Shown here piece after piece: positions 35,468-50,663 of a stretch of 64,000 nt of DNA. A model generated the notes under the pieces. The model was not told where the DNA came from. It did not search any database and saw only the letters and a list, made by a program, of their open reading frames with translations. Within the stretch, counting starts at the first letter, position 1. Each line of letters begins with the position of its first letter. Position numbers and translations under genes: made by a program. Source of the stretch: an uncultured Chloroflexia bacterium (GTDB lineage Bacteria; Chloroflexota; Anaerolineae; JAAYZQ01); assembly GCA_963700285.1 (NCBI GenBank), contig CAVOXA010000010.1:960001-1024000 (forward strand), given 5' to 3'.

Positions 35468-35496
35468 TGGACAAATCCCGGTCAAAGATGTATAAT
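35468..35496 (+). promoter_or_regulatory. Sigma70 promoter of the fumarate hydratase-Hdr cluster
   Basis: TGGACA-N17-TATAAT. Confidence 0.65.
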
Positions 35497-35665: not shown

Positions 35666-36511
35666 GTGAAAGAGATTGACGCAAAGCAGATTACGGAAAC
35701 CGTCGCCCAATTGTGCATCGAGAGCAACTATAATCTGGGTGAAGATGTATTGGCCGCGCTACGCTCCTACCGCGAGGCGGAGGTCTCGCCGGTTGGACGT
35801 GAGGTATTGGATCAAATCCTCGAGAACGCAGACATTGCCCAAAAGGAGCAAGTCCCCCTCTGCCAGGATTGTGGCCTGACCGTTGTTTTTTTGGAACTCG
35901 GCCAGGATGTGCATATCGCCGGTGGTGACCTGAACGAGGCCATCGCCGAGGGGGTACGCCAAGGATACGAAAAAGGCTACCTTCGCAATTCCATGGTGAA
36001 CCAGCCTTTCTCCGCTCGGATCAATACCAATGACAATACTCCACCCGTTGTCCATACCACCATCGTGCCTGGCAATGAACTCAAGATTACCGTGGCCCCA
36101 AAAGGTGGTGGCAGCGAGAACATGAGCCGGTTAGCCATGCTCAAGCCCGCCGATGGGCGTGAGGGGGTGGTCGACTTTGTGGTCGAGTCGGTGCGGCGAG
36201 CGGGGGCCAACCCCTGCCCGCCGATCATTGTCGGTGTGGGTATCGGCGGTTCAGCCGAGAAGGCGATGTGGTTGGCCAAGTATTCGCTCCTGCGCCAAGT
36301 GGGCCAGCCCAACCCTGATCCCGAAGTTTCTGAACTGGAAGCCGACATCCTGGTTCGAGTGAATCGCATCGGCATCGGGCCACAGGGCTTTGGCGGCCGC
36401 ACCACGGCGTTGGCGGTACACGCGGAGACCTTCCCATGCCACATTGCCAGCCTGCCCGTTGCTGTCAATATTCAGTGCCACTCTGCCCGGCACAAGGAGG
36501 CGATGCTGTGA
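35666..36511 (+). CDS. Class I Fe-S fumarate hydratase, alpha subunit
   Basis: PLCQDCG, KGGGSEN, NPCPP, CHIAS, QCHSARH. Confidence 0.9.
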   Translation: MKEIDAKQITETVAQLCIESNYNLGEDVLAALRSYREAEVSPVGREVLDQILENADIAQKEQVPLCQDCGLTVVFLELGQDVHIAGGDLNEAIAEGVRQGYEKGYLRNSMVNQPFSARINTNDNTPPVVHTTIVPGNELKITVAPKGGGSENMSRLAMLKPADGREGVVDFVVESVRRAGANPCPPIIVGVGIGGSAEKAMWLAKYSLLRQVGQPNPDPEVSELEADILVRVNRIGIGPQGFGGRTTALAVHAETFPCHIASLPVAVNIQCHSARHKEAML

Positions 36512-37053
36512 AGCTAACAACCCCCTTGACGGATGACGCTATCGAAAAACTCCACGCCGGCGACAAGGTCAGTATCACCGGTGTCATCTATGTTGGGCGA
36601 GACGCAGCCCATAAGCGCATCGTGGCAAGTATGGATGCCGATGAGCAGTTGCCCTTTGATCCTCAAGGCCAGATCATCTATTACATGGGCCCCGCTCCGG
36701 CCAAACCGGGCGATCCCATCGGCTCAGCGGGTCCGACGACCAGCTACCGCATGGATCCCTACGCTCACCGCCTCATGGAGGCAGGGCTGAAGGGCATGAT
36801 CGGCAAGGGCAACCGTTCCGTGCCGGTACGCGAGGCAATGCAGAAGCACAAGGCGATCTATATGGGCGCCATTGGTGGGGCAGGGGCTCTCATCGCCAAG
36901 AGCATCAAAAAGGCAGAGGTGATTGCCTACGACGATCTGGGTGCCGAAGCGCTCCGCCGGCTGGAGGTGGAGGACTTTCCGGCCATTGTGGTGAACGACA
37001 TCCATGGCGGCGACGCCTACGAGGATGGATTGCGGGAGCACAATCAGGAATAG
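36508..37053 (+). CDS. Class I Fe-S fumarate hydratase, beta subunit
   Basis: GRDAAH, YYMGP, GPTTSYRM, IGKG, GAEA; GTGA overlap with alpha. Confidence 0.9.
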   Translation: MKLTTPLTDDAIEKLHAGDKVSITGVIYVGRDAAHKRIVASMDADEQLPFDPQGQIIYYMGPAPAKPGDPIGSAGPTTSYRMDPYAHRLMEAGLKGMIGKGNRSVPVREAMQKHKAIYMGAIGGAGALIAKSIKKAEVIAYDDLGAEALRRLEVEDFPAIVVNDIHGGDAYEDGLREHNQE

Positions 37054-37062
37054 GGGGCAGCG

Positions 37063-37482
37063 ATGAGGGTCCGGCTATCGGCAGAATCGGTGCACAGCGA
37101 GCTGGTGCACCGCATCGAAGAGTACAGTGGTCAAGACCTGATGGCCTGCTATCAGTGTGGAAAATGTGCTGCCGGATGCCCGGTGGCCTTTGCCATGGAC
37201 ATACTCCCCAGCCAGGTGATCCGCTATGCCCAGTTGGGCCTTGTTGATCGGCTGCTCGACAGCCAGACCATCTGGCTGTGCGCAGCCTGCCAGACCTGTT
37301 ATACCCGCTGCCCCAAGGGTATCGATCTGAGCCGGATCATGGAAGCCCTTAGAGAGATCGCTATGTATGAAAAAGGTAGTCACATGGACTATGACGACCT
37401 GGGCCACGCCATCCCGCCTGAAGAAATGGCTAGCTGGCCGCAGCAGGCCTTCATTGGCGGCTTTCGCAAGTATACAGTATGA
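37063..37482 (+). CDS. hdrC: HdrC-like 2x[4Fe-4S] subunit (HdrC1)
   Basis: CYQCGKCAAGCP, WLCAACQTCYTRCP. Confidence 0.88.
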   Translation: MRVRLSAESVHSELVHRIEEYSGQDLMACYQCGKCAAGCPVAFAMDILPSQVIRYAQLGLVDRLLDSQTIWLCAACQTCYTRCPKGIDLSRIMEALREIAMYEKGSHMDYDDLGHAIPPEEMASWPQQAFIGGFRKYTV

Positions 37483-37574
37483 CGGACAGAATACCCAGCG
37501 CCTGCTATCCTACAACCAGTGGCTGCTCGCCCTTGTTTTTCGGATATTGAGAGTGCAATGGGAGGCACGAACCC

Positions 37575-38456
37575 ATGAAGGTACCCTATTTCCCCGGTTG
37601 TACCCTCAACACGACCGGCAAGGGCTTTGACAACGCCGTACGGGCTTCGACTGCAGCGGTGGGACTAGAGTTGGTCGAGCTGCCCGAATGGAACTGTTGC
37701 GGTGCGACCTATCCCCTCATTGTCGACAACATGCTTGAATTGGCTGCCCCTGCCCACATTCTGGTGGCAGCGCGTGAGGAGGGGAGCACGGTCACGACCG
37801 CCTGCACCACATGCTACAACGTCCTGAAGCGGACGAACAGATTTATCCGCGATCACAAAGAGGAACGGGATCGGATCAACGACTTTATCGAAGCCGAATA
37901 CAGCGGTGAAGTGGAGGTAATGGACATCCTGCATCTGCTGCGTGACCAGATTGGCTTTGATGCTGTCAGGGAAAAAGTACAGAAACCACTCAAAGATCTA
38001 CAGGTAGCCTCATATTATGGCTGCATGGTGCTCCGCCCGCCCGGCGAAGTCGCTTATGACGACCCCGACCACCCCCGGTCATTGGACGATCTTATGGCCG
38101 CTTTGGGTGCCACGCCGGTGGACTTTGCCCACAAGAACGAGTGCTGTGGCGCGTACCTGGCAGTCAAGGATGCCCGGATCACCCGGGAAATGGTCTATAC
38201 CATTCTTAGATCCGCCCAGGCCGCCGGGGCTGAAGCCGTGGCTACCAACTGTCCCCTGTGCCAATTCAATCTGGACAAGCAACAGGCTGAGATGCGCAAG
38301 ATCTATGCAGGCTACCAACCCATCCCCATCTTTTACTTCAGCCAGTTGATGGGCCTGGCACTGGGCCTTGACGCCAGCGAATATGGATGGGACCAACACT
38401 ATATTGACGGGCAGCCGCTCTTGACCGAACGAGGTCTCTGGGCGCACTCTGCGTGA
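37575..38456 (+). CDS. hdrB: HdrB-like CCG-domain subunit (HdrB1)
   Basis: YFPGC, WNCCG, ACTTC, YYGC, ECCG, NCPLC. Confidence 0.92.
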   Translation: MKVPYFPGCTLNTTGKGFDNAVRASTAAVGLELVELPEWNCCGATYPLIVDNMLELAAPAHILVAAREEGSTVTTACTTCYNVLKRTNRFIRDHKEERDRINDFIEAEYSGEVEVMDILHLLRDQIGFDAVREKVQKPLKDLQVASYYGCMVLRPPGEVAYDDPDHPRSLDDLMAALGATPVDFAHKNECCGAYLAVKDARITREMVYTILRSAQAAGAEAVATNCPLCQFNLDKQQAEMRKIYAGYQPIPIFYFSQLMGLALGLDASEYGWDQHYIDGQPLLTERGLWAHSA

Positions 38457-38477
38457 GGTTGGAGAAGGCAACGACTG

Positions 38478-39863
38478 ATGGCAGCTAGCGCCAAGGCACA
38501 GAACGAATACAGCAAACGGGTGATGATCGTTGGCGCTGGCATCGCCGGCATGCAGGCTGCGTTGGACATTGCCAGTTCCGGGTACCAAGTGGTGTTGGTG
38601 GACCGACTGCCTTCCATCGGCGGTCACATGCACCAGCTCTCCGAAACCTTCCCAACCCTGGACTGCGCCCAGTGCATCATGACGCCGCGTACCGTGGATG
38701 TGGGACGCCATGAAAACATCCTGCTCCACGTTTATGCCGAGATCGAGGATATCTCTGGTGAGGTGGGCGATTTCCGGGTACGCATCAGGCGCAAGCCTGC
38801 CTTCGTTAACTGGGATGCCTGTACTGCCTGTGGGGAGTGCACCGAAGCATGTCCTCAACTGATACCTGTCGACTTTGATCGCAATATGGAGATGGCTGCG
38901 GTGATGCGCAGTGGCAGAGTACGGCACGTCGGTACAGGCAAGGCCATCTATACCTTGTCACCCCAGGCCGTACCCAAAAAACCCGTGATCGATGTCGACT
39001 ATTGCACCTATTTCCTGCGGGGCAAGTGCCGCATCTGCGAAAAGGTCTGCCCCGTAGGTGCCATCGATTTTGAACAGGAGCCTGCCTGGGTAGAGGAACG
39101 CGTTGGGGCCATCATCCTGGCCACAGGCTACGAACTCTATCCTTTGGAGAACCTGGGCGAATATGGTGGTGGTCAGGTGCCAGACGTCATCGACGCCCTG
39201 GCCATGGAACGCCTCCTGAGCGCCTCGGGACCAACGGCCGGTACCATGCGCCGCCCTTCCGACGGCCGACAGCCCCGGGAGGTTGTCTGGATCCAATGCG
39301 CCGGCTCCCGGGACCCGGAGTTGGGGATGCCGTACTGCTCCAAAATCTGCTGCATGTATAGCGCAAAGCAAGCCATGCTCTACAAACACAAGGTTCACGA
39401 TGGGCAGGCCTACGTGTTCTATATCGACATCCGCTCGGCGGGAAAGCGCTATGAGGAGTTCATCCAGCGGGCCATGGAGGAAGATCAGGTGCTTTTCGTT
39501 CGCGGCAAGGTAAGCAAGGTCTTCCGCGAAGGTGAAAAGGTCATGGTCTGGGGTGTAGATACCCTGACCGACCTGCCGGTTGAAGTAGCTGCTGACCTGG
39601 TGGTGGTTTCACCGGCGATGGTTCCTTCTGAAGGCACACGAGAGTTGGGCGCGATGCTGGGGCTCGACGTCGATCAGTTCGGGTGGTGGACCGAAGGAGA
39701 GGCAAATCTTGCCCCCCTCGAGACAGCGCAACCCGGCGTTTTCTTGGCCGGAGCCGGGATCGGGCCCAAGGACATCCCTGAAGCGGTCTCACAGGGAAGC
39801 GGAGCAGCGGGCAAAGTTCTTTCGCTCCTGCGCCGCTGGGGCAGTCAGGGAGGCCAGGACTGA
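38478..39863 (+). CDS. hdrA: HdrA-like flavoprotein, short form (FAD domain plus inserted ferredoxin)
   Basis: GAGIAG, TFPTLDCAQC, CTACGEC...CP, QCAGSR...YCSKICCMYSAK, PKDIPE; lacks N- and C-terminal Fe-S domains. Confidence 0.88.
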   Translation: MAASAKAQNEYSKRVMIVGAGIAGMQAALDIASSGYQVVLVDRLPSIGGHMHQLSETFPTLDCAQCIMTPRTVDVGRHENILLHVYAEIEDISGEVGDFRVRIRRKPAFVNWDACTACGECTEACPQLIPVDFDRNMEMAAVMRSGRVRHVGTGKAIYTLSPQAVPKKPVIDVDYCTYFLRGKCRICEKVCPVGAIDFEQEPAWVEERVGAIILATGYELYPLENLGEYGGGQVPDVIDALAMERLLSASGPTAGTMRRPSDGRQPREVVWIQCAGSRDPELGMPYCSKICCMYSAKQAMLYKHKVHDGQAYVFYIDIRSAGKRYEEFIQRAMEEDQVLFVRGKVSKVFREGEKVMVWGVDTLTDLPVEVAADLVVVSPAMVPSEGTRELGAMLGLDVDQFGWWTEGEANLAPLETAQPGVFLAGAGIGPKDIPEAVSQGSGAAGKVLSLLRRWGSQGGQD

Positions 39864-39994
39864 TATCTCTGCCCCATCCCAGGAGGAAGGAATACGGAAG
39901 GCTTTGTCACCAGATCCTGCTGATGGCTCCTAACATTCAGCGGTTGGGGTGAGCAACGCGCCAGGCAGTTGGCCGCGGCCATACAGGAAAACGC

Positions 39995-41806
39995 ATGAAG
40001 CGCATCGGTGTCTTTGTCTGCCATTGTGGAACGAATATCGCCAGCACGATCGACGTGGAACGTGTGGTTGAAGCGGTACACGAGTTCCCTGATGTCGTGT
40101 ACGTTATCGACTACAAGTACGTCTGCTCCGATCCTGGCCAACAGCTCATCCGCGATCATATCCGTGATGATAGGCTGGATGCGGTTATTATCGCCGCATG
40201 TTCACCGGCCATGCACGAGACGACTTTCCGCAGGACGGCCCAAGCGGCCGGCATCAACCCTTACCAGACCGAGATCGCCAACATTCGCGAGCAGTCGAGC
40301 TGGGTTCACCAGACGCAGCAGGAAGCAGCCACCAACAAGGCCATTGAAACCATACGCACTATCGTCGCCAAGGCCCATTACAATCAATCGCTGACCCCAC
40401 ATTTCCTGCCCCTGGTCAAGCGGGCGATGGTAGTGGGTGGGGGCATCGCCGGGATACAGGCCACATTGGACCTGGCCGATGCAGGCTATCCCACTGTACT
40501 GGTGGAAAAGGCTGGGCATTTGGGCGGGCGTATGGCAGAACTGTCGTCCCTGTACCTTGATTTCGGTGCAGCACCGGACCTGCTCAGGGAAAAGATCAAA
40601 GCGGTCAAGACCCACGCCAACATCCAGGTGATCACTAACGCCGAGGTCGCACAAGTGGGCGGCTATGTCGGAAATTTCGTCGTCACGGTAGAGCAAAAAG
40701 CTGACGAGGAGATTTCCTATTCCTTTGACATTGGCGCGATGATTATCGCTACCGGATTTGACCTCTACGACCAGGAACGCCTAGGTGAGTACGGTGGCAA
40801 ACGCTATCCAGACGTGATCGATGGCCTGCAGTTCGAAGAGATGCTACGTCCCGACGGCCCCACCGGCGGTGAGATCCGCCGCCCTTCGGACGGCAAGATC
40901 CCCAGGGATGTAGTGTGGGTGCAGTGTGCTGGCTCCCGGGATCCCGAACTGCACATGCCGTACTGCTCCAAAGTGTGCTGCATGTACGTGGCCAAGCAGA
41001 CCATCCTCTTCAAACAGCAGGTTCCTGAAGGACAGGCTACCGTCTTTTACATCGATATCCGCAGCCAGGGGAAGGGCTATGAAGAGTTTGTCCAGCGGGC
41101 GATGGAGGATTATGATGTGCTCTACCTGCGGGGCAAGGCTTCCAAGGTCTTTCAGGAGCCTGCAATGCCTGTCCCTGAACATCCGCCTGGCGAGAACTCG
41201 GTGAGCCTGAGCGACCTGTCGAGAGGCGATGCCAGGAGGAATAGAGCAGGTCCGAATGGGCGAGTTACGGTCTGGGGTGTGGACACATTGACCAATCTGC
41301 CGATCGAGGTCGAGGCCGACCTGGTCGTGCTGGCCACAGCAACGGTCCCTCGCGCGGACGCCCAGGCACTGGGCCAGAAGCTGCGGATCAGCACTGACGA
41401 GCACGGCTTCTTTAGCGAAGCGCACCCCAAGCTGCGCCCGGTGGAAAGCCTGACAGCGGGCGTCTTTCTCGCCGGGGCAGCCCAGTTCCCCAAGGACATC
41501 CCGGAGACGGTGGCTCAAGCAAGTGGCGCCGCAGCCAAAGTGCTCAGCCTGTTCTCTCAGCGACAGATGGTCCAGGAACCAACCATTGCTTATGTGGAGC
41601 CCGATCTCTGCTCTGGCTGCGGTCTTTGCATCCCATCGTGTCCTTACGATGCGCGCATGATGCACGATTGGCAACACATCGCCATAGTGAACACCGCCCT
41701 GTGCCAGGGTTGCGGGGCTTGCACCATGGTCTGTCCCAACAAGGCTTGCCAGGTGCGCAACCTAGCCCACCGGCAGATCCTCTCGATGATGGAGGCCTAT
41801 CTGTAG
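39995..41806 (+). CDS. hdrA: HdrA-like flavoprotein (N-terminal Fe-S, FAD, C-terminal ferredoxin)
   Basis: GVFVCHCG, ACSP, NIREQ, GGGIAG, YCSKVCCMYVAK, CSGCGLC...CQGCGAC. Confidence 0.9.
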   Translation: MKRIGVFVCHCGTNIASTIDVERVVEAVHEFPDVVYVIDYKYVCSDPGQQLIRDHIRDDRLDAVIIAACSPAMHETTFRRTAQAAGINPYQTEIANIREQSSWVHQTQQEAATNKAIETIRTIVAKAHYNQSLTPHFLPLVKRAMVVGGGIAGIQATLDLADAGYPTVLVEKAGHLGGRMAELSSLYLDFGAAPDLLREKIKAVKTHANIQVITNAEVAQVGGYVGNFVVTVEQKADEEISYSFDIGAMIIATGFDLYDQERLGEYGGKRYPDVIDGLQFEEMLRPDGPTGGEIRRPSDGKIPRDVVWVQCAGSRDPELHMPYCSKVCCMYVAKQTILFKQQVPEGQATVFYIDIRSQGKGYEEFVQRAMEDYDVLYLRGKASKVFQEPAMPVPEHPPGENSVSLSDLSRGDARRNRAGPNGRVTVWGVDTLTNLPIEVEADLVVLATATVPRADAQALGQKLRISTDEHGFFSEAHPKLRPVESLTAGVFLAGAAQFPKDIPETVAQASGAAAKVLSLFSQRQMVQEPTIAYVEPDLCSGCGLCIPSCPYDARMMHDWQHIAIVNTALCQGCGACTMVCPNKACQVRNLAHRQILSMMEAYL

Positions 41807-41839
41807 CAGCAAGCCAGCAAGTACTGAGACAAGAAGGTC

Positions 41840-42397
41840 ATGCTCAAGGAAAATACCATGCAGCCCGATCTAACCTTCATCGGACAGGTCAGCGAACTGA
41901 GCCAGCAGAACGTAAGCCGCTGCTACTACTGCCTGCGCTGCTCGGCAGGCTGCCCGTCGGCTTACGCCATGGAATACACGCCGGCCCAGATCTTGCGTTT
42001 GGTCCAACTGGGTCAGAAGGACGCCCTCCTTCGCTCCTCGGCCATCTGGCTGTGCATCGGCTGCGAGACCTGCGGCACCCGTTGCCCCAACGAGATCCAC
42101 CCCGGCGCCGTCATCGACGCCCTGCGCCACATCGCCCTGGCCGAAGGGGTCAGCCCGGCAGAGCAATCGGTGTTCAAGCTGCACCAGGCCTTTCTGGACA
42201 GCATCCGCACCTGGGGCCGGCTGCACGAATTGACCATGATCCTCCAGCACAAGCTCACCAGCCGCGACCTGTTCAGCAACCTGGACATGGGGTTGGACAT
42301 GTTCCTCAAGGGCAAGATCCATCCCCTGCCCAAGCGCATCCAGAACATCGGCCAGGTCAAGGAACTGTTTGAGCTGGGGGATGAGGATTCAGGGTGA
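41840..42397 (+). CDS. hdrC: HdrC-like subunit (HdrC2)
   Basis: CYYCLRCSAGCP, WLCIGCETCGTRCP, GRLHE. Confidence 0.88.
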   Translation: MLKENTMQPDLTFIGQVSELSQQNVSRCYYCLRCSAGCPSAYAMEYTPAQILRLVQLGQKDALLRSSAIWLCIGCETCGTRCPNEIHPGAVIDALRHIALAEGVSPAEQSVFKLHQAFLDSIRTWGRLHELTMILQHKLTSRDLFSNLDMGLDMFLKGKIHPLPKRIQNIGQVKELFELGDEDSG

Positions 42398-42404
42398 GGT
42401 CGGG

Positions 42405-43301
42405 ATGACGAGACGGTATGCCTTCTATCCGGGCTGCACGCTGCATTCGACGGGCGTGGAGTTTGGGGTCAGCAGCGAGCTGGTCTGCCAGGCGCTGGAC
42501 CTGGAGATGGTCGAGATCCCCGACTGGAACTGCTGCGGGGCGTCGTCGGCCCACTCTATGGATCCCGCCCTCTTTCTGGCCCTGCCAGCCCGCAACCTGG
42601 CCCAGGCGCAGAAAGTGGGCCTGGACGATATGGCCATCCCCTGCGCCGCCTGCTACTCGCGGCTGGCAGCCGCCGACCTGGCCCTGCAGCAGGACGGCGC
42701 CTTCCGGGCCAGGATGGAGTCGGTGCTGGACTTTGAGTATGAAGGCCGGGTGCGGCCCCGCAGCCTGCTGGACATCCTGGCCAACGACCTGTCCAGGGAG
42801 GCGTTGACGGCCAGGGTCAAGGCGCCGCTGGAAGGCCTAAAGGTCGCAGCCTACTATGGCTGCCTGCTCATCCGGCCGCCCAAGTATACCGGTCGCTGGG
42901 ACGACCCGGAGCACCCGCAGACGATGGACCATATCATCGAGCTGATGGGTGCCGAGGCGATGCCCTGGAGCTACGGCGTGGACTGCTGCGGCGGCAGCCT
43001 GACCCTGAACCGCAGCGACGTAGTGGTCCATCTGGTGGACAGACTGGCCATCGCCGCCCACGAGGCGGGGGCCGATGCCCTGGTCACGGCCTGCCCTATG
43101 TGCATGGCCAACGTCGATGGGCGGCAGCTTTACCGCGGCGGACCGCCGCTGCCGCGACCACCCAAACCCGGTTATGAACCGCTGCCCATCTTTTACTTCA
43201 CCGAGTTGATGGCCTTGGCCTATGGTCTGTCTTTGAAAAAGGTATTGGGCAAGCACCTGGTCAACCCCCGGCCGCTCTTGGGCCGGTTGGGCCTGGTCTA
43301 G
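42405..43301 (+). CDS. hdrB: HdrB-like subunit (HdrB2)
   Basis: FYPGC, WNCCG, PCAAC, YYGC, DCCG, ACPMC. Confidence 0.92.
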   Translation: MTRRYAFYPGCTLHSTGVEFGVSSELVCQALDLEMVEIPDWNCCGASSAHSMDPALFLALPARNLAQAQKVGLDDMAIPCAACYSRLAAADLALQQDGAFRARMESVLDFEYEGRVRPRSLLDILANDLSREALTARVKAPLEGLKVAAYYGCLLIRPPKYTGRWDDPEHPQTMDHIIELMGAEAMPWSYGVDCCGGSLTLNRSDVVVHLVDRLAIAAHEAGADALVTACPMCMANVDGRQLYRGGPPLPRPPKPGYEPLPIFYFTELMALAYGLSLKKVLGKHLVNPRPLLGRLGLV

Positions 43302-43317
43302 CGCAGGAGCTTTCAAC

Positions 43318-46300
43318 GTGGAAAGAGCCGATTCACTGGACAAAGGCAAGCACAGCGTCCTGGTCGCCGGTGGGGGGATCGCCGGCATGGCAGCGGCGAT
43401 GCACCTGGCCGAGCTGGGCATCGAGGTCTACCTGCTGGACGCCGCGCCGGCCATTGGCGGCTCGATGCACCTGCTGGACCATACCTTTCCCACCAACTCT
43501 TGCGGCATCTGCCTCATGCTGCCCCGGCAGCCGGCTTTCTGCCCCACCTTCGAGTGCGAAGCCAGAGAGGATGTCCACCTCTTGCCCTACGCCGAGGTCT
43601 CGGCCGTAGATTGGGGTGCTGGTGGACCGGGAAACGGGGCGCCCCAGGTCACTGTCAACCACAAGGCCCGCTACGTGGACGTGGACCGGTGCAATGGCTG
43701 TGGCGACTGCGCCGCCGTCTGCCCCGAAGCCCGGCCCCACGACCACGAGGGCAGGCTTTCGCCGGTCAAGGCCATCTACCGGCCCCCGGGACTGCGGGCG
43801 GTGCCCGATGCCTGGGTCATCGACATGGAAACCTGCACCCGCTGTGGCGCCTGCGTGGATGCCTGCCCTACCGGCGCCATCGACCTGGAGATGGCGGACC
43901 GCAAGCAGGTCCTGGACGTGGACGCCGTGTTGCTGGCGCCCGGCTATGCGCCCTTTGAGGCCCGGGTCAAGGGTGAGTACGGCTACGGGGTCTATGACAA
44001 TGTGCTCTCCGCCCTGGAGTTTGAACGGATGGCCAGCCTGGCGGGCTCCAGCGTGGCCCACCTGGCCCGGCCGTCGGACGGCAAGGCACCGAAGCGGGTC
44101 GCCTTTGTGCACTGCGTCGGCTCGCGGGACAACCTCTGCGGAGCGGGCTACTGCTCCTCGGTCTGCTGCATGTACACGGCCAAGCAGGTGGCCCTGGCCA
44201 AGGAGTTGGACCCGGAGCTGGAAGCGACGGTCTTTACCATGGACCTGCGCGCCTTTGGCAAGGATTTCGAGGCCTACATAGAGGGGGTGCAGGCGTTGCC
44301 AGGGGTGAGGTACCTGCGGGCCATGCCCTCGTCGGTCTACCAGCGGCAGCGCACGCGGGACCTGGCCGTAACCTACGTGGGCGAAGAGGGCAAGCTGCGG
44401 GAGGAAGCCTTTGACCTGCTGGTGCTGGCGGTGGGCTTGGCGCCTCCGGCGGGGATGCAGGCCCTGGCCCGCGAGCTGGGGGTGGCGCTGAACGAGTACG
44501 GCTTTGCCCGGACGGGCGGCTACCAGCCGACGCACATGGACCACCCTGGCGTGTTCGTAGCCGGCGCTTTCCGCGAGCCAAAGGATATCCCCGAGACGGT
44601 GGCCGAGGCGGCGGGGGCGGCGGCTGAGGTGGCGGGGTACCTGGCTGGACAGACACAGCGGATGCAGGCATCCGGCGACAGGCGACGGACGCCAGACGAC
44701 AGAGGGCAGACAGCGGAAGGATATCGCGACGTTTCGGATGAGGAGCCCAGGGTGGGGGTCTTTGTCTGTGAGTGCAACGGCGAACTGGCGCCTGTTGGCG
44801 TACCAGAATTGGCAGCTTGGGCGAAGGAGCTGCCTGGGGTGGCCCTGGCGCGGGCCGTGCCGGAGGGTTGCTCGCCGGAGGGGCGGGCCGCCATGGGTGC
44901 GGCCATTGAGTCTGAGGGACTGAACCGGGTCGTGGTCGCCGGCTGTTCGCCGCGGCTGTTCGGCGGCGAATTCGAGGCGATGATGCGGGATGCCGGACTG
45001 GACCCCCGGCTGCTGGCGCGGGCCAACCTGCGGGAGCAGGTGGTCTACCCCCACCGCGGCAACGGGGCGGATCTGGCCCGGGAAGCCCAGGTCGGGAAAG
45101 CCCGATCCCTGGTCGGCATGGCCGTGGCCGGCCTGAGGACCATGGCCGGGGTGGAAGCCCTGGCGCTGGGCGGTAGCCAAACGCTGACTCGCCGGGCGGT
45201 GGTGGTTGGCGGTGGGGCGGCGGGGATGGCGGCCGCGCTGGCCCTGGCCCGGTTGGACATTCCCGTGGTCCTGGTGGAGCGGGAATCGAGCCTGGGCGGC
45301 CAGTGGCGTCACATCCACTATCAGGCCGACGGCAGTGATCCGCAGGCGGCCCTGGCTGACTTGGTCGCCCAGGTGGCGGCTGAGGAGCGGATCAGGGTTC
45401 ATCTAGGCGCCGAAGTGGTGGACTACCAGGGCAAAGCCGGCCAGTATCGGACGACCGTCGGCGTGAACGGTCGGCAAGAGGTGGTGGACCACGGCGTGCT
45501 GGTGGTGGCCACCGGCGGCGGACCAGCGGTGACGGAGGAATACCTCTACGGCCAGGACCCGCGGGTGCTGACGCAGCGCGAGCTGGAGCAGCAGATCGCC
45601 GACGGCACGCTGGCCACAGTGCAGCGGGTAGTCATGATCCAGTGTGTTGGTTCTCGGGAGCCGGAGCGGCCCTATTGCAGCCGGGTATGCTGTACCCTGG
45701 CGGTCAAGAACGCCCTGAAGCTCAAGGAATTGAAGCCCAGGCTGGAGGTCTATGTCCTCTACCGCGAGGTGCGGACCTACGGCTTTCGCGAAGCCTACTA
45801 TCAGGCGGCGCGGGATGCGGGGGTGGTGTTCCTGCGCTACGAGCTGCCGGACAAGCCCGCCGTCAGGGCGGAGGGGGACCGGCTGGCGGTGAGCCTCGTC
45901 GAGCCGGTGACCGGACAGTCGCTGGTATTGGAAGCCGGATTGCTGGTCCTTAGCGTGGGCATCGACGCTGAGGAAGAGGGGGCGCTGGCGGGAAAGTTGG
46001 GGCTGACGTTGGACGGCGACGGTTTTTTCCGGGAGGAGCAGGCCAAGATGAAGCCGCTGGATCTTCAGAGCGCGAAAGGGGGCGGCATCTATGTGGCGGG
46101 GCTGGCCCACAGTCCCCGCTTCCTGGAAGAGACGCTGGTCCAGGGACGGGGGGCGGCGATGCGGGCCGCGGCTTTTCTGGCGCCGGAGGTGGTGGAGGAC
46201 CGGCCAACGTCGGTGTGGGTCAACGAACGGCTGTGCAGCTTCTGCGGTCTGTGCGAGGAAGCTTGTCCCTACGGTGCGCGGGTGATGAACCAGGACACGC

Positions 46301-46434
46301 GGGTGGCGGACGTGGATTATGTCTTGTGCCAGGGCTGTGGGGTGTGCGCCATGGTCTGTCCCAACAAGGCCACCCTGCAAAAGACCTTTGAGCACAAACA
46401 ACTGATGGCTGCTGTTGACATGGCCATGTCGTAG
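43318..46434 (+). CDS. hdrA: Large tandem HdrA-like flavoprotein (two FAD modules)
   Basis: Two GGGxAG motifs, two CVGSR...CSxxCC motifs, internal GVFVCEC, inserted and C-terminal ferredoxins. Confidence 0.9.
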   Translation: MERADSLDKGKHSVLVAGGGIAGMAAAMHLAELGIEVYLLDAAPAIGGSMHLLDHTFPTNSCGICLMLPRQPAFCPTFECEAREDVHLLPYAEVSAVDWGAGGPGNGAPQVTVNHKARYVDVDRCNGCGDCAAVCPEARPHDHEGRLSPVKAIYRPPGLRAVPDAWVIDMETCTRCGACVDACPTGAIDLEMADRKQVLDVDAVLLAPGYAPFEARVKGEYGYGVYDNVLSALEFERMASLAGSSVAHLARPSDGKAPKRVAFVHCVGSRDNLCGAGYCSSVCCMYTAKQVALAKELDPELEATVFTMDLRAFGKDFEAYIEGVQALPGVRYLRAMPSSVYQRQRTRDLAVTYVGEEGKLREEAFDLLVLAVGLAPPAGMQALARELGVALNEYGFARTGGYQPTHMDHPGVFVAGAFREPKDIPETVAEAAGAAAEVAGYLAGQTQRMQASGDRRRTPDDRGQTAEGYRDVSDEEPRVGVFVCECNGELAPVGVPELAAWAKELPGVALARAVPEGCSPEGRAAMGAAIESEGLNRVVVAGCSPRLFGGEFEAMMRDAGLDPRLLARANLREQVVYPHRGNGADLAREAQVGKARSLVGMAVAGLRTMAGVEALALGGSQTLTRRAVVVGGGAAGMAAALALARLDIPVVLVERESSLGGQWRHIHYQADGSDPQAALADLVAQVAAEERIRVHLGAEVVDYQGKAGQYRTTVGVNGRQEVVDHGVLVVATGGGPAVTEEYLYGQDPRVLTQRELEQQIADGTLATVQRVVMIQCVGSREPERPYCSRVCCTLAVKNALKLKELKPRLEVYVLYREVRTYGFREAYYQAARDAGVVFLRYELPDKPAVRAEGDRLAVSLVEPVTGQSLVLEAGLLVLSVGIDAEEEGALAGKLGLTLDGDGFFREEQAKMKPLDLQSAKGGGIYVAGLAHSPRFLEETLVQGRGAAMRAAAFLAPEVVEDRPTSVWVNERLCSFCGLCEEACPYGARVMNQDTRVADVDYVLCQGCGVCAMVCPNKATLQKTFEHKQLMAAVDMAMS
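44677..44711 (+). repeat. Degenerate heptamer array (consensus GACAGAC) in the HdrA linker
   Basis: GACAGGC GACGGAC GCCAGAC GACAGAG GGCAGAC. Confidence 0.6.
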
Positions 46435-46449
46435 CAGAAAAGAGGATCT

Positions 46450-46878
46450 ATGGCTGAGGCCGAGTTTGAACCCAGAATCATCGCCTTTCTGTGCAACTGG
46501 TGCACCTATACCGGTGCCGACCTGGCGGGTACCTCTCGCATCCAGTACCCGCCCAACATCCGCATCATCCGCCTCATGTGCTCCGGCGGCCTGGACCCGG
46601 TCTATGTCTCCAAAGCCCTGTTGGAGGGCGCCGACGGCGTCCTCGTCGGCGGCTGCCATCCCGGCGACTGCCACTACCAGAGCGGCAACTACAAAGCCCG
46701 CCGCCGGATGGCCATTCTGCAGAATATCCTGGACCAGATGGGCTTTGATTCCGACCGTGTCTGGCTGCGCTGGATCAGCGCCAGCGAGGGCCAGTACTTT
46801 GCCGACACCGTGACTGACATGGTGGCGACCCTGAAAGCGAAGGGACCCAATCCACTCAAGGGTGTTGGGTCGATCTGA
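46450..46878 (+). CDS. mvhD: MvhD/FlpD (FlxD)-like [2Fe-2S] protein
   Basis: FLCNWCTY, MCSG, GCHPGDCHY, WISASEG. Confidence 0.93.
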   Translation: MAEAEFEPRIIAFLCNWCTYTGADLAGTSRIQYPPNIRIIRLMCSGGLDPVYVSKALLEGADGVLVGGCHPGDCHYQSGNYKARRRMAILQNILDQMGFDSDRVWLRWISASEGQYFADTVTDMVATLKAKGPNPLKGVGSI

Positions 46879-46931
46879 TCTGGAGATTGGCAGCGACGGG
46901 GTGGGTTTCATATTTGGCGCGAGGGTGAGGG

Positions 46932-48071
46932 ATGATTGAAGCAACCATAGAGGTACAAGACGGCACGCTGGCGACGATTCAGGGTCTGTTGAGAAAGCTG
47001 CTGGACAAGCATGTCGTAGACGCCTTGCTGGTACCCATGACGTTGCCTGGTGGAACCGTCGCGCCGATGTTGGTGAGCGACCCGGAGGCGCTGCAGAGGG
47101 CCGATCCCCTGGCGCCGGTGCTGCCCATCAACGCCGCGCGGGCGGTGGCCAACCTGACGGTGACCGGCCACCAAGAGAAGCTCGGGGTGGTCCTGCGCGC
47201 CTGTGAGATCCGGGCTCTGGTCGAACTGGTCAAGTTCCAGCAGGCCAAGGCCAATGCGAGATCCGGGGACCAGGTCCTGATCGTGGGCATCGATTGCCTG
47301 GGCACGTATGGCGTCACCGACTACCAGGCTGTGGAGGACAAGGGCCAGTTGGTGGCAGAGCTGCTGGCCGGTGCGGAGGGGGGCGAGCCCAAGCCCCGCG
47401 AGGCCATGGCCTTCCGGGCCGCCTGCCAGATGTGCGAGCAACCGCTGCCCGATGGCGACCACGTGGACTTGACCATCGGCTTGGTGGGGGTTGAGCCGGG
47501 CAAGGTCTATCTCAAGGCACGAGATACGCTGGCCGCACCGCTGGGCGTGGCGGCCAACGGTGCACCGGCCGGTAGGGTGGAGGCCGTAGAAAAGCTGGTT
47601 GCAGCCCGCGTGGAGGCCCGCGATGCTGCCTTTGCTGCGTTCAGGGACCGGGTGGACAGTATGGGGGGGCTGCTGCAAGAGTTTTCCACCTGCATCCGCT
47701 GTCACAACTGCATGATCAACTGTCCCATCTGCTACTGCAAGGAGTGCATCTTTCGAACGGCGACCTTTGAGCACGAGTCGCAGCTTTACTACCAGTGGGC
47801 GGCGCGCAAGGGCGAGGTACGGATGCTGCCTGACACGCTGCTGTTCCACCTGACGCGCCTGAACCACATGGTGACCAGTTGTGTGGGCTGCGGACTATGC
47901 ACCGAGGCCTGTCCTGTGGACATTCCCGTGGGTACGGTCTTTCGGGCCGTAGGGGAAAAGGTGCAGGCCATCTTTGACTACCATCCTGGCCGGAGCCTGG
48001 CGGAGGCAGCACCGGTACAAGAGTTCCGCGAGGATGAATTGACAACCCTAGGCGAAAGGCCCCGCCCGTGA
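46932..48071 (+). CDS. FdhB/FrhB (FlxC)-like Fe-S protein
   Basis: LRACE, GIDCLG, RAACQMC, CIRCHNC...CPICYCKEC, FHLTR, CVGCGLCTEACP. Confidence 0.82.
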   Translation: MIEATIEVQDGTLATIQGLLRKLLDKHVVDALLVPMTLPGGTVAPMLVSDPEALQRADPLAPVLPINAARAVANLTVTGHQEKLGVVLRACEIRALVELVKFQQAKANARSGDQVLIVGIDCLGTYGVTDYQAVEDKGQLVAELLAGAEGGEPKPREAMAFRAACQMCEQPLPDGDHVDLTIGLVGVEPGKVYLKARDTLAAPLGVAANGAPAGRVEAVEKLVAARVEARDAAFAAFRDRVDSMGGLLQEFSTCIRCHNCMINCPICYCKECIFRTATFEHESQLYYQWAARKGEVRMLPDTLLFHLTRLNHMVTSCVGCGLCTEACPVDIPVGTVFRAVGEKVQAIFDYHPGRSLAEAAPVQEFREDELTTLGERPRP

Positions 48072-48177
48072 AACGTATTTCGTGCTGCGCATTGCACCAT
48101 GTATCTGGTCCAGGCACAGCATGCGTTCTTGAACCCATAGTATGTTTCACGCATTACGATTGACCGTGGAGGTTCCT

Positions 48178-48861
48178 ATGATCGAAGCCAAGATGATCCC
48201 CATATATGTCATGGGCAAACGCTACTCCGTGCCCGATTCACTGACGATTATGGGTGCTCTGGAGTATGCTGGCTACAAGTTGATCCGTGGGGTGGGCTGC
48301 CGGGCAGCCTTCTGCGGAGCATGCGCGACCGTCTATCGGATTGATGGCGATCCAAAGTTGCACATCGGACTGGCCTGTGGTACCCAGGTCGAACCAGGCA
48401 TGTATCTGACGCAGATTCCATTCTATCCCGCTGAACGCACTCAGTACCATTTGGATGAACTGGAGCCGACTTTTGCCACAATGGTCCGCCTCTATCCCCA
48501 GGTGCTCAAATGCCTGGGCTGCGGTACCTGTACCAAAAGTTGTCCTCAGGACCTGCAGGTCAAGGACTATATGGCAGCCGCGATGCGAGGAGACATCGCC
48601 CGGGTGGCCGACCTGTCTTTTGACTGCATCATGTGTGGCATGTGTGTTTCCCGCTGCCCTGCTGAAGAGGCACAACCCAACATCGCCATTCTTGCCCGGC
48701 GGCTCTACGGTCGTTATTTGGCTCCGAAAGCCCAACACCTGGCCGAGCGTGTTGACGAGATCCAAGCCGGGGCGTACGACGATGACCTGGCCAACCTCAA
48801 GGTCATGCCCGAAGCCGAACTGCGCCAAAGGTACAACACCCGGGACATTGAGCCGGACTAG
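48178..48861 (+). CDS. Fumarate reductase/succinate dehydrogenase-type Fe-S subunit
   Basis: [2Fe-2S] GCRAAFCGAC...LAC; CLGCGTCTKSCP; CIMCGMCVSRCP; GGAGG RBS. Confidence 0.82.
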   Translation: MIEAKMIPIYVMGKRYSVPDSLTIMGALEYAGYKLIRGVGCRAAFCGACATVYRIDGDPKLHIGLACGTQVEPGMYLTQIPFYPAERTQYHLDELEPTFATMVRLYPQVLKCLGCGTCTKSCPQDLQVKDYMAAAMRGDIARVADLSFDCIMCGMCVSRCPAEEAQPNIAILARRLYGRYLAPKAQHLAERVDEIQAGAYDDDLANLKVMPEAELRQRYNTRDIEPD

Positions 48862-48910
48862 AGGATCTGTCCCAAGCGCACCAGGAGCGTATTGCTGAAG
48901 GAGAAATGGA

Positions 48911-50530
48911 ATGATTGATGGATACACACCCACCATGCGCGAATTGATCAAGCGAGTAGAGACTACCCGCCCTGCCCGGCTGCAAGAAACTTGGCCCATG
49001 ATGTCTCCAGCCGAGAAGCAGGAGATCCTCCGCCAGTTCCATCCCGACTACAAGCCCGAAGGGATGCGAGAACTGCGCGTAGGGCCTGCTAAAGGTATGC
49101 GTACCCCTCACGAATTGGCCGACCTGCTGGAGGCACACAGCTCGCTGAGAAACGTCGACTTGGATCTGAGCCAGATCGACTTTGAGACCGACGTTCTAGT
49201 CATCGGTGGTGGGGGCGCAGGCTCGGCAGCCGCGCTACTGGCCCGGCAGCAAGGCGCCAGTGTGTTGATGGTCACCAAGTTGCGCCACGGCGACGCCAAT
49301 ACAATGATGGCACAGGGTGGCATTCAGGCAGCCGACAAGCCTAACGACAACCCGGCCATCCACTACCTGGACATGATGGGTGGTGGTCACTTTAGCAATG
49401 ATCCAGATCTCGTGGAGGCGCTGGTGCGTGATGCGCCGGAGGCAATCGCCTGGTTGGAGAGTCTTGGCTGCATGTTCGATAAAGAGCCAGACGGGACACT
49501 CGTCACCATACATGGCGGTGGCACAAGCCGCAAGCGTATGCACTCTGCACGGGACTATTCTGGCGCCGAGATCATGCGTACCCTACGCGATGAGGTCCGT
49601 TCCTACCCGGAGGATATCACCGTCATCGAGTTTTCCCCGGCCGTCGAACTCTTGCTGGATGATAATGGACAAGCAACGGGAGCCGTGCTACAGAACTTGG
49701 AGACAGGAGAATACTGCATCGTCCGGGCCAAGACGACAGTACTGGCCACCGGTGGCAGCGGGCGGCTTCACTACCAGGGATTTGCCACCACCAATCACTA
49801 TGGGGCTACTGGCGATGGTGTGGTCTTGGCTTACCGCGCAGGCGCGGATCTGTCTTTTCTGGATACGATGCAATATCACCCCACCGGGGCTGCCTATCCG
49901 GCCCAGATCGTCGGCCTGTTGGTAACTGAAAAAGTGCGCGGTCTGGGAGCCCAGGTATGCAACATCCACGGCAGCCAGTTCGTCTATCCCCGTGAGACCC
50001 GCGATATAGAGGCCAGCGCCATCATCCGTGAATGTACTGGGCGGGGCAACGGCGTCGTCACTCCCACCGGATTTGTCGGAATCTGGCTAGATTCGCCCAT
50101 GATCGACGTCATCCACGGCCCCGGTACCATCGAGAAGGAACTCCCGGCCATGGTCCGCCAGTTCGCCCGCTTTGGGCTCGACATCGTCAAAGACCCGATG
50201 CTGGTCTATCCAACCCTACACTACCAAAACGGTGGCGCTACCCTCAAACCCGACGGATCGACCAGCGTGCCCAACCTTTATGGGGCGGGTGAAATCAGCG
50301 GTGGGGTACACGGCCGCAACCGGCTTATGGGCAACTCGCTTCTAGAAGTCACAGTCTATGGGCGGCGAGCTGGCCTGGCGGCGGGACAGAAGGCTCAGAA
50401 GATCACGCCAGGCAAGCTGTCCCTAGGTCACATAGTTGCCTGGGAGAAACAACTCCATAAAGCAGGAATCGAGACAGGCATCGAATCGCCCGCTATCCTT
50501 CCGGACTACACCCGGCGGGCATCTGCATAG
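48911..50530 (+). CDS. Fumarate reductase/succinate dehydrogenase-family flavoprotein (TfrA-like)
   Basis: GGGGAG, AQGG, QYHPT, TEKVRG, TRD, HYQNGG, HGRNRLMGNSL. Confidence 0.88.
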   Translation: MIDGYTPTMRELIKRVETTRPARLQETWPMMSPAEKQEILRQFHPDYKPEGMRELRVGPAKGMRTPHELADLLEAHSSLRNVDLDLSQIDFETDVLVIGGGGAGSAAALLARQQGASVLMVTKLRHGDANTMMAQGGIQAADKPNDNPAIHYLDMMGGGHFSNDPDLVEALVRDAPEAIAWLESLGCMFDKEPDGTLVTIHGGGTSRKRMHSARDYSGAEIMRTLRDEVRSYPEDITVIEFSPAVELLLDDNGQATGAVLQNLETGEYCIVRAKTTVLATGGSGRLHYQGFATTNHYGATGDGVVLAYRAGADLSFLDTMQYHPTGAAYPAQIVGLLVTEKVRGLGAQVCNIHGSQFVYPRETRDIEASAIIRECTGRGNGVVTPTGFVGIWLDSPMIDVIHGPGTIEKELPAMVRQFARFGLDIVKDPMLVYPTLHYQNGGATLKPDGSTSVPNLYGAGEISGGVHGRNRLMGNSLLEVTVYGRRAGLAAGQKAQKITPGKLSLGHIVAWEKQLHKAGIETGIESPAILPDYTRRASA

Positions 50531-50546
50531 GCGACGTCCCAACTTG

Positions 50547-50584
50547 AAAACTCCTACCGGGTGTTGTATCCGGCAGGAGTTTTT
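50547..50584. terminator. Bidirectional intrinsic terminator
   Basis: AAAACTCCTACCGG...CCGGCAGGAGTTTTT between convergent units. Confidence 0.85.
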
Positions 50585-50592
50585 CTATGTAG

Positions 50593-50663
50593 CTGGGGGA
50601 CAGGGATTTGAACCCCGACTAGACGATCCAGAGTCGCCTGTCCTACCATTAGACGATCCCCCA
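50593..50663 (-). tRNA. tRNA-Gln (anticodon CTG)
   Basis: TGGGGGA acceptor stem, CT-CTG-GA loop, GGTTCAAATCC T-arm; CCA not encoded. Confidence 0.95.

Follow-up and report, generated by a model that had tools for sequence, protein, structure and literature searches.

A candidate membrane-free fumarate reductase linked to heterodisulfide reductase proteins and a duplicated redox cassette in an uncultured Anaerolineae bacterium

Candidate fumarate-reducing operon

The window analysed here is the whole 64,000-nucleotide stretch of contig CAVOXA010000010.1 (assembly GCA_963700285.1) from an uncultured Chloroflexia bacterium. It carries a cluster of 13 genes, all on the + strand (35666-50530), that encodes a fumarase, heterodisulfide reductase (Hdr) proteins and a candidate two-gene fumarate reductase, FrdBA. 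FrdBA is read as a membrane-free fumarate reductase that is fed directly by HdrB1, likely as the high-potential arm of HdrA bifurcation, with NAD(P)H input from a second locus of the same genome (locus B); this reading is given an even chance of being right. The cluster is a Flx-less form of a system known so far as a proposal. In profile order, the genes are fumA, fumB, hdrC1, hdrB1, hdrA1, hdrA2, hdrC2, hdrB2, hdrA3, mvhD, fdhB', frdB, and frdA. All 13 are intact open reading frames (ORFs) without frameshifts, separated by intergenic gaps of -4 to 131 bp, and the profile calls agree with the functions that the initial annotation had given to these co-oriented genes. The host genome (G000) is 89% complete with 6.5% contamination; related genomes carry labels of the type G001, loci L, and contigs C. 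Close homologs whose source is named come from Anaerolineae or Chloroflexota, and G000 likely belongs to this class.

FrdA orthologs occur in 34 of the 61 related genomes. A GTDB scan yielded at least 559 confirmed FrdA relatives among 599 stretches, and the best 80 of the 559 were kept. The counts that follow refer to the 57 long loci with at least 9 kb upstream of frd, the 23 truncated loci being left out. hdrA or hdrB is present in 55 of the 57, so the synteny of frd with hdr that the initial annotation had named as a check is conserved. Among these loci, hdrA occurs in 54, mvhD in 48, flxA/B/C in 43, and fumarase in 41, being of class II in 36 and of class I in 5. A gene of the malate dehydrogenase family accompanies 34 of them, and 19 have an Asp-Al_Ex exporter. 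Clostridial FrdA orthologs are 57-62% identical, with the gene order mdh-fumC-hdrBCA-mvhD-flxCBA-frdBA-transporter, and orthologs in cultured relatives include those of Sporomusa rhizae and Ruminococcus flavefaciens. As in clusters of the "succinate operon" type, the window holds orthologous FrdBA, Frd-clade HdrBC, HdrA, and fumarase together. Within the fetched stretch, five loci (L065, L071, L078, L085, L123) carry hdrC1B1 and frdBA without mvhD or fdhB'. At L032:11150-14059 (G030:C111), an FGGY kinase gene and a RuBisCO-large-chain family gene lie between hdrL and mvhD inside the frd cluster.

fumA (35666..36511) encodes the 281-aa alpha subunit of a class I fumarate hydratase, which scores 418 bits with NF004885 against a cut-off of 276 and stays below the cut-off of the tartrate dehydratase alpha profile. 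fumB (36508..37053) encodes the 181-aa beta subunit. Both proteins exceed the NCBIfam cut-off for class I fumarase.

Candidate fumarate reductase pair

frdA (48911..50530) encodes a 539-aa FAD_binding_2 flavoprotein. When its dicarboxylate site was mapped by alignment to E. coli SdhA, the residues H323, T339, E340, R364, H437, and R471 were found intact, and they are invariant in 81 of 81 aligned flavoproteins (80 GTDB loci). The protein has a conserved 90-aa N-terminal extension, and a profile search found no match to Succ_DH_flav_C. Its AlphaFold model is of moderate quality (pLDDT 72.8) and poor near the flavin loops, and it was used for fold assignment only; the closest solved folds are SdhA/FrdA, with 29-37% identity. 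FrdA falls below every NCBIfam cut-off, and its best match is TfrA (339 bits against a cut-off of 718). The flavin adenine dinucleotide (FAD) fold and the dicarboxylate site place FrdA in the Sdh/Frd superfamily, whereas the covalent FAD, the anchor, and the [3Fe-4S] cluster of canonical succinate:quinone and quinol:fumarate reductases (SQR/QFR, types A-D) are missing.

frdB (48142..48861, likely start 48178) encodes a protein with one [2Fe-2S] and two full [4Fe-4S] motifs. Twelve Cys are invariant in FrdB; eight of them make up the two [4Fe-4S] motifs, so there is no distal [3Fe-4S] cluster as in canonical SQR/QFR. FrdB scores only 38 bits against the TfrB cut-off of 385, and a profile search found no fused CCG domain of the TfrB kind in it. 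A hydropathy scan detected a membrane helix in none of the 13 cluster proteins. Both Sdh_cyt anchors of G000 belong to another operon, sdhCDAB on contig C15, in which they sit immediately upstream of sdhAB, and the claim that the cluster has no membrane anchor therefore holds. Judged from these residues and motifs, FrdBA likely reduces fumarate to succinate without a membrane.

Two other identities were considered for FrdA and set aside. As NadB, it would need the Glu that presumably binds L-aspartate (E121 in E. coli NadB); Gly202 stands there (79 of 81 rows), and G000 has a separate NadB-like gene with the Glu, at 32% identity. As the SdhA of G000, it shares only 33% identity with that separate gene. 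A second FrdA paralog (61-63% identity) occurs with no frdB or hdr match nearby at L047:1564-7544 (G005:C40) and L042:16782-18371 (G011:C14); the G005 copy, an ORF of 761 aa, follows succinyl-CoA-ligase-like and citrate-lyase-family genes.

HdrB1 and the predicted contact with FrdB

hdrC1 (37063..37482) encodes a 139-aa protein with two [4Fe-4S] motifs, and hdrB1 (37575..38456) encodes the 293-aa HdrB1. The HdrB tree, rooted at the midpoint, comprised 50 rows taken from the window and 40 chosen loci, after rows that had stops or were covered too briefly had been excluded. All 31 Frd-linked HdrB1 rows, including that of the window, formed one clade (100/99), separate from the 19 other HdrB rows, and this clade spans Chloroflexota, Bacillota, Spirochaetota, and Thermoplasmatota. 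HdrB2 (hdrB2, 42405..43301, 298 aa, with two intact five-Cys motifs) lies outside it. In the 46 loci that have only one HdrB, this protein scores higher against HdrB1 than against HdrB2 without exception. HdrB1 reaches 189 bits against the SdhE cut-off of 500 and 193 bits against the HdrB cut-off of 345. Set beside type E SQR or methylmenaquinol:fumarate reductase (MFR), in which SdhB binds the CCG anchor SdhE, the picture is mixed, with a predicted FrdB-HdrB1 contact on one side and a separate HdrC1 on the other.

The contact of FrdB with HdrBC, which the initial annotation had named as a check, was modelled in one three-chain job (HdrB1, HdrC1, and FrdB, with custom 53-row alignments). The complex scored 0.71 and the best control 0.00; in the calibration, 116 of 157 solved complexes pass the mark for this score, as do 2 of 215 mismatched pairs, counts that are only rough for a three-chain job with custom alignments. 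The runs share at least 91% of contacts, and the partners have pLDDT of at least 81. In the predicted interface, the first CxxCxxC of FrdB meets HdrB1 residues 9, 38-41, and 54-61 (including C9 and C41) and the C-terminal helices of HdrC1 (residues 110-138). In the available parts of two preprints, the C42/C81 cluster of methanogen HdrB is distal and the C234 cluster is proximal (bioRxiv 10.64898/2026.08.18.745454; bioRxiv 10.64898/2026.08.25.746951). The N-terminal CCG cluster is thus the distal one, and FrdB is therefore placed opposite the HdrC end of HdrB1. The first of these preprints, in the part seen, describes the non-cubane clusters of ETF:(methyl)menaquinone oxidoreductase (EMO; ETF, electron transfer flavoprotein) as a plain electron conduit for a docked flavoprotein (bioRxiv 10.64898/2026.08.18.745454). 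The predicted dock favours a direct wire from HdrB1 to FrdB over a thiol shuttle.

A thiol shuttle as in archaeal Tfr is unlikely, if still a serious contender. In that case, HdrA3/B2C2 would bifurcate to a disulfide, and HdrB1C1 would re-oxidise the thiols and feed FrdBA. All ten non-cubane Cys are kept in both HdrB1 and HdrB2, TfrA is the best NCBIfam match of FrdA even though the score is far below the cut-off, and Flx-Hdr is described, in the accessible part of one paper, as passing electrons to ferredoxin and thiols (PMC7282089). However, HdrBC occurs just once in 46 of 52 loci, where the two half-reactions could not be divided between separate modules, and HdrB2C2 also occurs at a locus without Frd. 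His154, which is proposed for disulfide chemistry in HdrB in the part of the preprint that was available (bioRxiv 10.64898/2026.08.25.746951), has no equivalent in 53 of 53 HdrB1; the window has Met151 at this position, and HdrB2 has Leu. The GAGGG-R stretch, the site for coenzymes M and B (CoM/CoB) in methanogen HdrB, is missing in HdrB1 as well, and the predicted FrdB site is the distal cluster. The thiol/disulfide shuttle between two HdrBC modules that had first been put forward, as one of two routes, is thus disfavoured by the single HdrBC of most loci, by the sharing of HdrB2C2 with a locus without Frd, and by the predicted dock.

HdrA and the electron input

The cluster was first described as holding two HdrABC sets. 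The two HdrBC pairs stand, whereas the hdrA genes number three, with four FAD domains. hdrA1 (38478..39863, 461 aa) encodes a FAD domain with an inserted ferredoxin domain and is the first half of a split HdrA pseudo-dimer. hdrA2 (39995..41806, 603 aa) encodes the second half, with N-terminal, FAD, and C-terminal ferredoxin domains. HdrA1 and HdrA2 jointly repeat the domain order of HdrA3 (hdrA3, 43318..46434, 1038 aa), a fused HdrA with two FAD domains, and are thus its split form. The equivalents of Glu356 and Lys409 and the four cluster Cys (5ODC alignment numbering) are kept in all four FAD domains; these are presumably the bifurcation-site residues of methanogen HdrA. By analogy with that enzyme, the HdrA proteins may bifurcate electrons to ferredoxin. 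Rnf, as a possible user of the reduced ferredoxin, gave no match above cut-off in G000.

A plain sink without bifurcation is quite improbable. Electrons from NAD(P)H, ferredoxin, or ETF would be dumped on fumarate via the same wire, and no low-potential ferredoxin would be formed. Such an arrangement would suit two loci (L071, L123) that have hdrC-hdrB-frdBA without hdrA in the fetched stretch, and the hdrD and etfBA genes of locus B, which are like the soluble part of EMO. The presence of hdrA in nearly all long loci and the bifurcation-site residues in each of the four FAD domains speak against it.

The operon is not self-contained, in that its genes include no electron-input module. A profile search found no NAD(P)H-binding domain in the 13 proteins. 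FlxA and FlxB are absent from the operon, and the one FlxA/FlxB-like pair that G000 encodes is part of a hydrogenase operon. The FlxD counterpart is present as MvhD (mvhD, 46450..46878, 142 aa, PF02662). FdhB' (fdhB', 46932..48071, 379 aa), an FdhB/FlxC-like Fe-S protein, has methanogen FdhB as its best PDB matches and is 22-25% identical to the FlxC of orthologous loci. It keeps the Cys ligands, but the glycine and GSLH motifs known from methanogen FdhB are missing throughout an alignment of 22 homologs. These motifs are taken here to be flavin-associated, and FdhB' is likely flavin-free. A search of G000, at its completeness of 89%, found no F420 ligase. A donor supplied in trans is suggested by the lack of a NAD-binding domain in the 13 proteins, the location of the only FlxA-like match in the hydrogenase operon, and the lack of an F420 ligase match; locus B, on contig C15, is its likely source.

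Other donors were considered. F420 acting through FdhB' is not supported, since the motifs are missing and no F420 ligase was found; a CofD-family match in G000 is uninformative, as such matches also occur in 11 of 14 control genomes. The FlxA-like match elsewhere in G000 is a hydrogenase subunit.

G000 has further Hdr loci. A third Hdr cluster (L003, L004; G000:C22:47600-63900, and C22:32889) has an HdrA3-like gene, a GltD-containing HdrL, two mvhD, and two hdrCB. It lies about 15 kb from acetyl-CoA synthase and contains genes that are presumably metV and metF. A fourth cluster (L005, G000:C7:66700-76100) has hdrCB, a split hdrA with a NuoF-like insert, mvhD, and an MvhA-like NiFe hydrogenase, and it is a possible input for H2 or NADH. 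L006 (G000:C10:835000-852000) has sucC, a korA-like gene, and a GltD-containing gene of 1201 aa, together with mvhD, an hdrD-like gene, and hdrA; in other taxa, such genes are direct neighbours of frdBA. At G000:C1:62886-69915 there are hdrD-like, NuoF-like, and FdhA-like genes, and the FdhA-like match has one in-frame TGA, possibly for selenocysteine.

Direction of the reaction and substrate

Asn occupies the covalent-FAD His position in 80 of 81 flavoproteins (Asn130 in the window), and the sole His row appears to be the second, canonical flavoprotein of a locus with two flavoproteins. Enzymes of the Sdh/Frd family with non-covalent FAD are usually reductases only and are usually unable to oxidise succinate. 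Because Asn replaces the covalent-FAD His, the FAD of FrdA is likely non-covalent and the enzyme likely works reductively. The soluble fumarate-reducing module linked to Hdr that the initial annotation had described is therefore upheld by the intact active site, the predicted non-covalent FAD, and the linkage to hdr across the long loci.

The reverse direction, in which succinate oxidation would confurcate with reduced ferredoxin to NAD(P)H and feed the Wood-Ljungdahl pathway, has a slim chance. G000 encodes acetyl-CoA synthase. The anchorless FrdABEF of Syntrophobacter, which is set beside the window's pair by description, orthology aside, was also seen under succinate-oxidising growth, and its reversibility is discussed in the part of the paper that was accessible (PMC5947623). 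Against this stand the predicted non-covalent FAD, the separate SdhCDAB of G000, and the clostridial orthologs that sit with malate dehydrogenase, fumarase, and an exporter, in an operon that comes from a succinate producer. Another enoate substrate or an anchor encoded elsewhere, with the Hdr linkage as mere co-regulation, has a very slim chance: FrdA is below all NCBIfam cut-offs with only distant solved structures, and G000 has two Sdh_cyt anchors, but the residues of the dicarboxylate site do not vary, fumarases of two unrelated classes recur alongside, each anchor belongs to its adjacent sdhAB, and a dedicated HdrB clade co-occurs across phyla.

Shared cassette and locus B

The inner five genes of the operon are duplicated in G000. 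Tract 1 (41856..46437; hdrC2-hdrB2-hdrA3) is 99.6% identical to G000:C15:245263-240682, with 18 mismatches in 4582 positions. Tract 2 (46450..48071) is 99.75% identical to G000:C15:240070-238449, and it begins at the ATG of mvhD and ends at the stop of fdhB'. hdrC2 (41840..42397) encodes 185 aa counted from the first ATG, and its likely start is 41858. The initial annotation had considered a thiol/disulfide shuttle handled by both HdrBC modules, and a Frd-specific role of the second one is disfavoured by the near-identical copy at the C15 locus, which has no Frd. The HdrC2B2A3-MvhD-FdhB' block would rather be a general Fe-S and flavin relay. The two layers of the operon also differ in GC content at third codon positions (GC3), which is 0.66-0.72 in the outer layer (fumAB-hdrC1B1-hdrA1A2 and frdBA) and 0.79-0.86 in the inner layer (hdrC2-hdrB2-hdrA3-mvhD-fdhB'). 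Loci L065 and L078 have the outer layer without the inner layer.

At locus B (L001:1245-12412, G000:C15, minus strand), next after the block comes hdrL, whose 927-aa product has a GltD-like domain, and then hdrD, a full hdrA, and etfBA. A peptidase S58 gene and two small ORFs, presumably a toxin-antitoxin pair, also lie there, and the etf genes are frameshifted. The GltD-like domain of HdrL carries the motif GGGNVA...YRRSR, which is taken to be of the NADPH type. In relatives, HdrL carries GltD or is replaced by HdrA-N with NuoE/NuoF-type genes, and in G030 and G045 a GltD-like NAD(P)H domain is inserted inside HdrA3, which has no such insert in the window. In other families, both gene sets lie in one cluster (G037, L067, L069), and hdrD occurs without GltD in G027 and G042. 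Gene order suggests that an ancestral supercluster was split in this Anaerolineae family, with each half retaining a copy of the core.

Two fdhB' copies are present in 13 of 23 family genomes (G021 included). In the 10 short-read genomes examined, one of the two fdhB' tails runs on into frdBA, the other into hdrL-type genes. Within a genome, the tails are 97.9-100% identical in nine of the ten and 91% in G006; between genomes, they are 72-89% identical. The 100% identity over contig-end stubs of 55-165 bp is partly built into graph assembly, and longer contig-end overlaps give 98.4% over 427 bp (G016) and 99.0% over 199 bp (G019). Full cassette copies within one genome are 96.8-99.8% identical in G000, 93.8-99.7% in G001, and 96.2-99.8% in G015, whereas between genomes the identity is 89-96% for G000 and G001 and 69-81% to G015. 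Single-copy flanking genes differ by 6-8% between G000 and G001.

The first 33 nt of hdrC2 have locus-specific alleles in both G000 and G001, and the duplication therefore predates the split of these two genomes. The cassette copies are likely kept alike by gene conversion, as suggested by an old duplication whose copies are closer within than between genomes. Exceptions are G021, G006, and the mvhD tree. Two of these count against gene conversion: the hdrC2B2A3 copies of G021 are only 73-74% identical at the DNA level, and the mvhD tree does not pair the G001 copies. In G021 (L060, L061; C19, C5), homogenisation has lapsed over hdrC2B2A3 but still holds for mvhD and fdhB', at which the assembly collapses. 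As a process, gene conversion between duplicated genes is commonplace. An assembly artefact or a contaminating strain was rejected as the source of the duplicate, since the copies differ at 22 sites, each has its own gene context, and this pair of contexts recurs in 12 other genomes. A recent duplication in G000 alone was rejected on the basis of the hdrC2 alleles common to G001.

In G001, G015, G021, and G003, the frd locus has a CBS-domain gene between hdrA3 and mvhD. In G000, this gene lies at locus B (L001:14075-14668; G000:C15:240667-240074), and the window spacer 46435-46449 equals the 15-bp spacer of locus B in G001. The GC3 of this gene (0.67) fits the frd locus. Its position reflects either a real swap or assembly mis-phasing, and the operon may have 14 genes.

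The cassette leads to a wider and more tentative proposal, namely a modular soluble switchboard. One gene-converted core would serve two operons, with FrdBA (via the distal cluster of HdrB1) and ETF (via HdrD) as terminals. HdrB would be a through-wire without disulfide chemistry, and fumarate reduction would drive ferredoxin reduction from NADPH without quinone or thiol. This proposal is possible, on the doubtful side.

Proposed mechanism and its weak points

In the proposed mechanism, FumAB would convert malate to fumarate. NAD(P)H would enter via the GltD- or NuoEF-type domain of HdrL, which is at locus B here and in the same cluster in several relatives, and the HdrC2B2A3-MvhD-FdhB' block would relay the electrons as an Fe-S/flavin unit. 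By analogy with methanogen HdrA, the FAD of HdrA1/A2 would send one electron to ferredoxin via the inserted ferredoxin domain and one to HdrC1. From HdrC1, electrons would enter HdrB1 at its proximal non-cubane cluster, move on to the distal one, and reach fumarate through FrdB and the non-covalent FAD of FrdA. No free thiol would be required in this wire. The potential of fumarate is given as about +30 mV in the accessible part of one paper (PMC5947623).

Several points weigh against the direct feeding of FrdBA by HdrB1 with bifurcation at HdrA. The best-80 loci come mostly from related gut Clostridia, and the counts are not independent; two of the 57 long loci have neither hdrA nor hdrB. The relative G048 has Ala at the position of Glu340. 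Both five-Cys sites of HdrB1 are complete and also compatible with thiol chemistry, and the loss of His154 is common to HdrB2 and hence not specific to HdrB1. The docking score expresses model confidence, possibly a memory of HdrC-HdrB or SdhB-SdhE-like complexes, and the docking covered only HdrB1 with HdrC1 as partners of FrdB. The three further Hdr loci and the FdhA-like gene of G000 could also supply electrons. No public sequencing run contained half of the sampled words, and they gave no usable expression evidence. No biochemical characterisation or enzyme assay of the system was found in the literature covered, most subscription journals being outside that coverage.

Relation to known systems

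The core idea is not new, as Hdr-coupled fumarate reduction that drives ferredoxin reduction was already proposed in 2019-2020, as far as the available parts of two papers show (PMC7282089, PMC6315080). The "succinate operon" of Pseudoclostridium thermosuccinogenes comprises fumarate hydratase, Flx-Hdr, a two-gene fumarate reductase, and a putative transporter, and the link between fumarate reduction and ferredoxin reduction is assumed there on the basis of a 2019 preprint, according to the part of the paper that was accessible (PMC7282089). Matched by this partial description, the window's cluster resembles that operon in its fumarase, Hdr, and anchorless two-gene Frd, and clostridial FrdA orthologs show its order in 43 of the 57 long loci. 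Unlike that operon, it has no FlxA/FlxB, three HdrA, two HdrBC, an HdrL-type input in trans, and a duplicated, homogenised cassette.

In tubeworm symbionts and Thioflavicoccus, a flxABCD-hdrABC/korABCD/tfrAB cluster led to the proposal, made from gene order in the part of the paper that was seen, that Hdr-Flx passes electrons directly to a putative Tfr and 2-oxoglutarate synthase (Rubin-Blum 2019, PMC6315080). Compared by description, the window's cluster differs from it in having neither Flx nor Kor. Anchorless frdAB, HdrL, and HdrBCA-MvhD-FdhBA are described elsewhere as context, and the available parts of these papers do not present this cluster (PMC7325909, PMC2702500, PMC5736913).

The pair is like methanogen TfrAB in that it is soluble, has TfrA as the best FrdA profile, and is associated with CCG domains; unlike TfrAB, it is below the cut-offs, has its CCG domains in a separate HdrB, and lacks the CoM/CoB-site motifs. 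With the methanogen complexes HdrABC-MvhADG (5ODC) and HdrABC-MvhD-FdhAB (7BKB), the cluster shares the HdrA FAD-site residues, HdrBC, MvhD, and an FdhB homolog. Unlike them, it has no hydrogenase or FdhA in the operon, an FdhB' without the presumed flavin-associated motifs, and an HdrA that is a split or fused pseudo-dimer. As described in the accessible part of its source, EMO likewise has an HdrBC-like unit that wires non-cubane clusters to a docked flavoprotein partner. EMO, however, is a single membrane-bound heme protein, whereas the system proposed here is soluble, has five Cys at both clusters, and has FrdB as its predicted partner.

In concerted evolution of the tufA/tufB type, duplicate gene copies are closer within than between genomes. 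The cassette shares this feature, and its tracts end at gene borders; unlike tufA/tufB, it is a five-gene redox block that two operons with distinct terminal modules have in common. Within the same literature coverage, no description was found of the shared cassette or of gene conversion in heterodisulfide reductase genes, and a search for a Hdr-fumarate reductase-MvhD system in Anaerolineae found no literature report.

What bacterial HdrBC reduces without CoM-CoB is a long-standing question. If the through-wire reading is true, it would answer the role of many bacterial HdrBC that have no CoM-CoB or DsrC. Should HdrA bifurcation use fumarate as its high-potential sink, many anaerobes of guts and sediments would gain reduced ferredoxin from succinate formation with no membrane involved. 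Short-read assemblies break at the duplicated cassette, and the operon therefore appears fragmented or FdhB'-less in many metagenome-assembled genomes.

Operon boundaries and minor observations

The initial annotation had placed one promoter and one terminator around the cluster, and a promoter-like match and a terminator-like hairpin lie there. The sigma-70-like promoter (35468..35496, + strand) matches the consensus at 11 of 12 positions, a consensus match only. It is the best of 8 + strand sites, and shuffled sequences yield 6.4, which puts the number of sites at chance level. After frdA, a terminator-like hairpin (~50546-50583) is stable at -23.4 kcal/mol (z -3.5; none of 200 shuffles equally stable), but it is absent from the output of the consensus terminator scan. 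The hairpin faces a minus-strand tRNA-Gln gene (50592-50663) and is likely bidirectional. A weak promoter-like site (46887-46914, 9 of 12 positions) lies in the mvhD-fdhB' spacer inside the shared tract and is not above chance.

The four runs compared with the region consist of low-depth contigs; in one of them, X1, depth is higher over the cassette, and no conclusion on copy number was drawn from it. The end of the window's contig (C10:2147173-2152723) overlaps C20:1-5551 over 5.5 kb at 99.6% identity, which indicates some redundancy in the G000 assembly.

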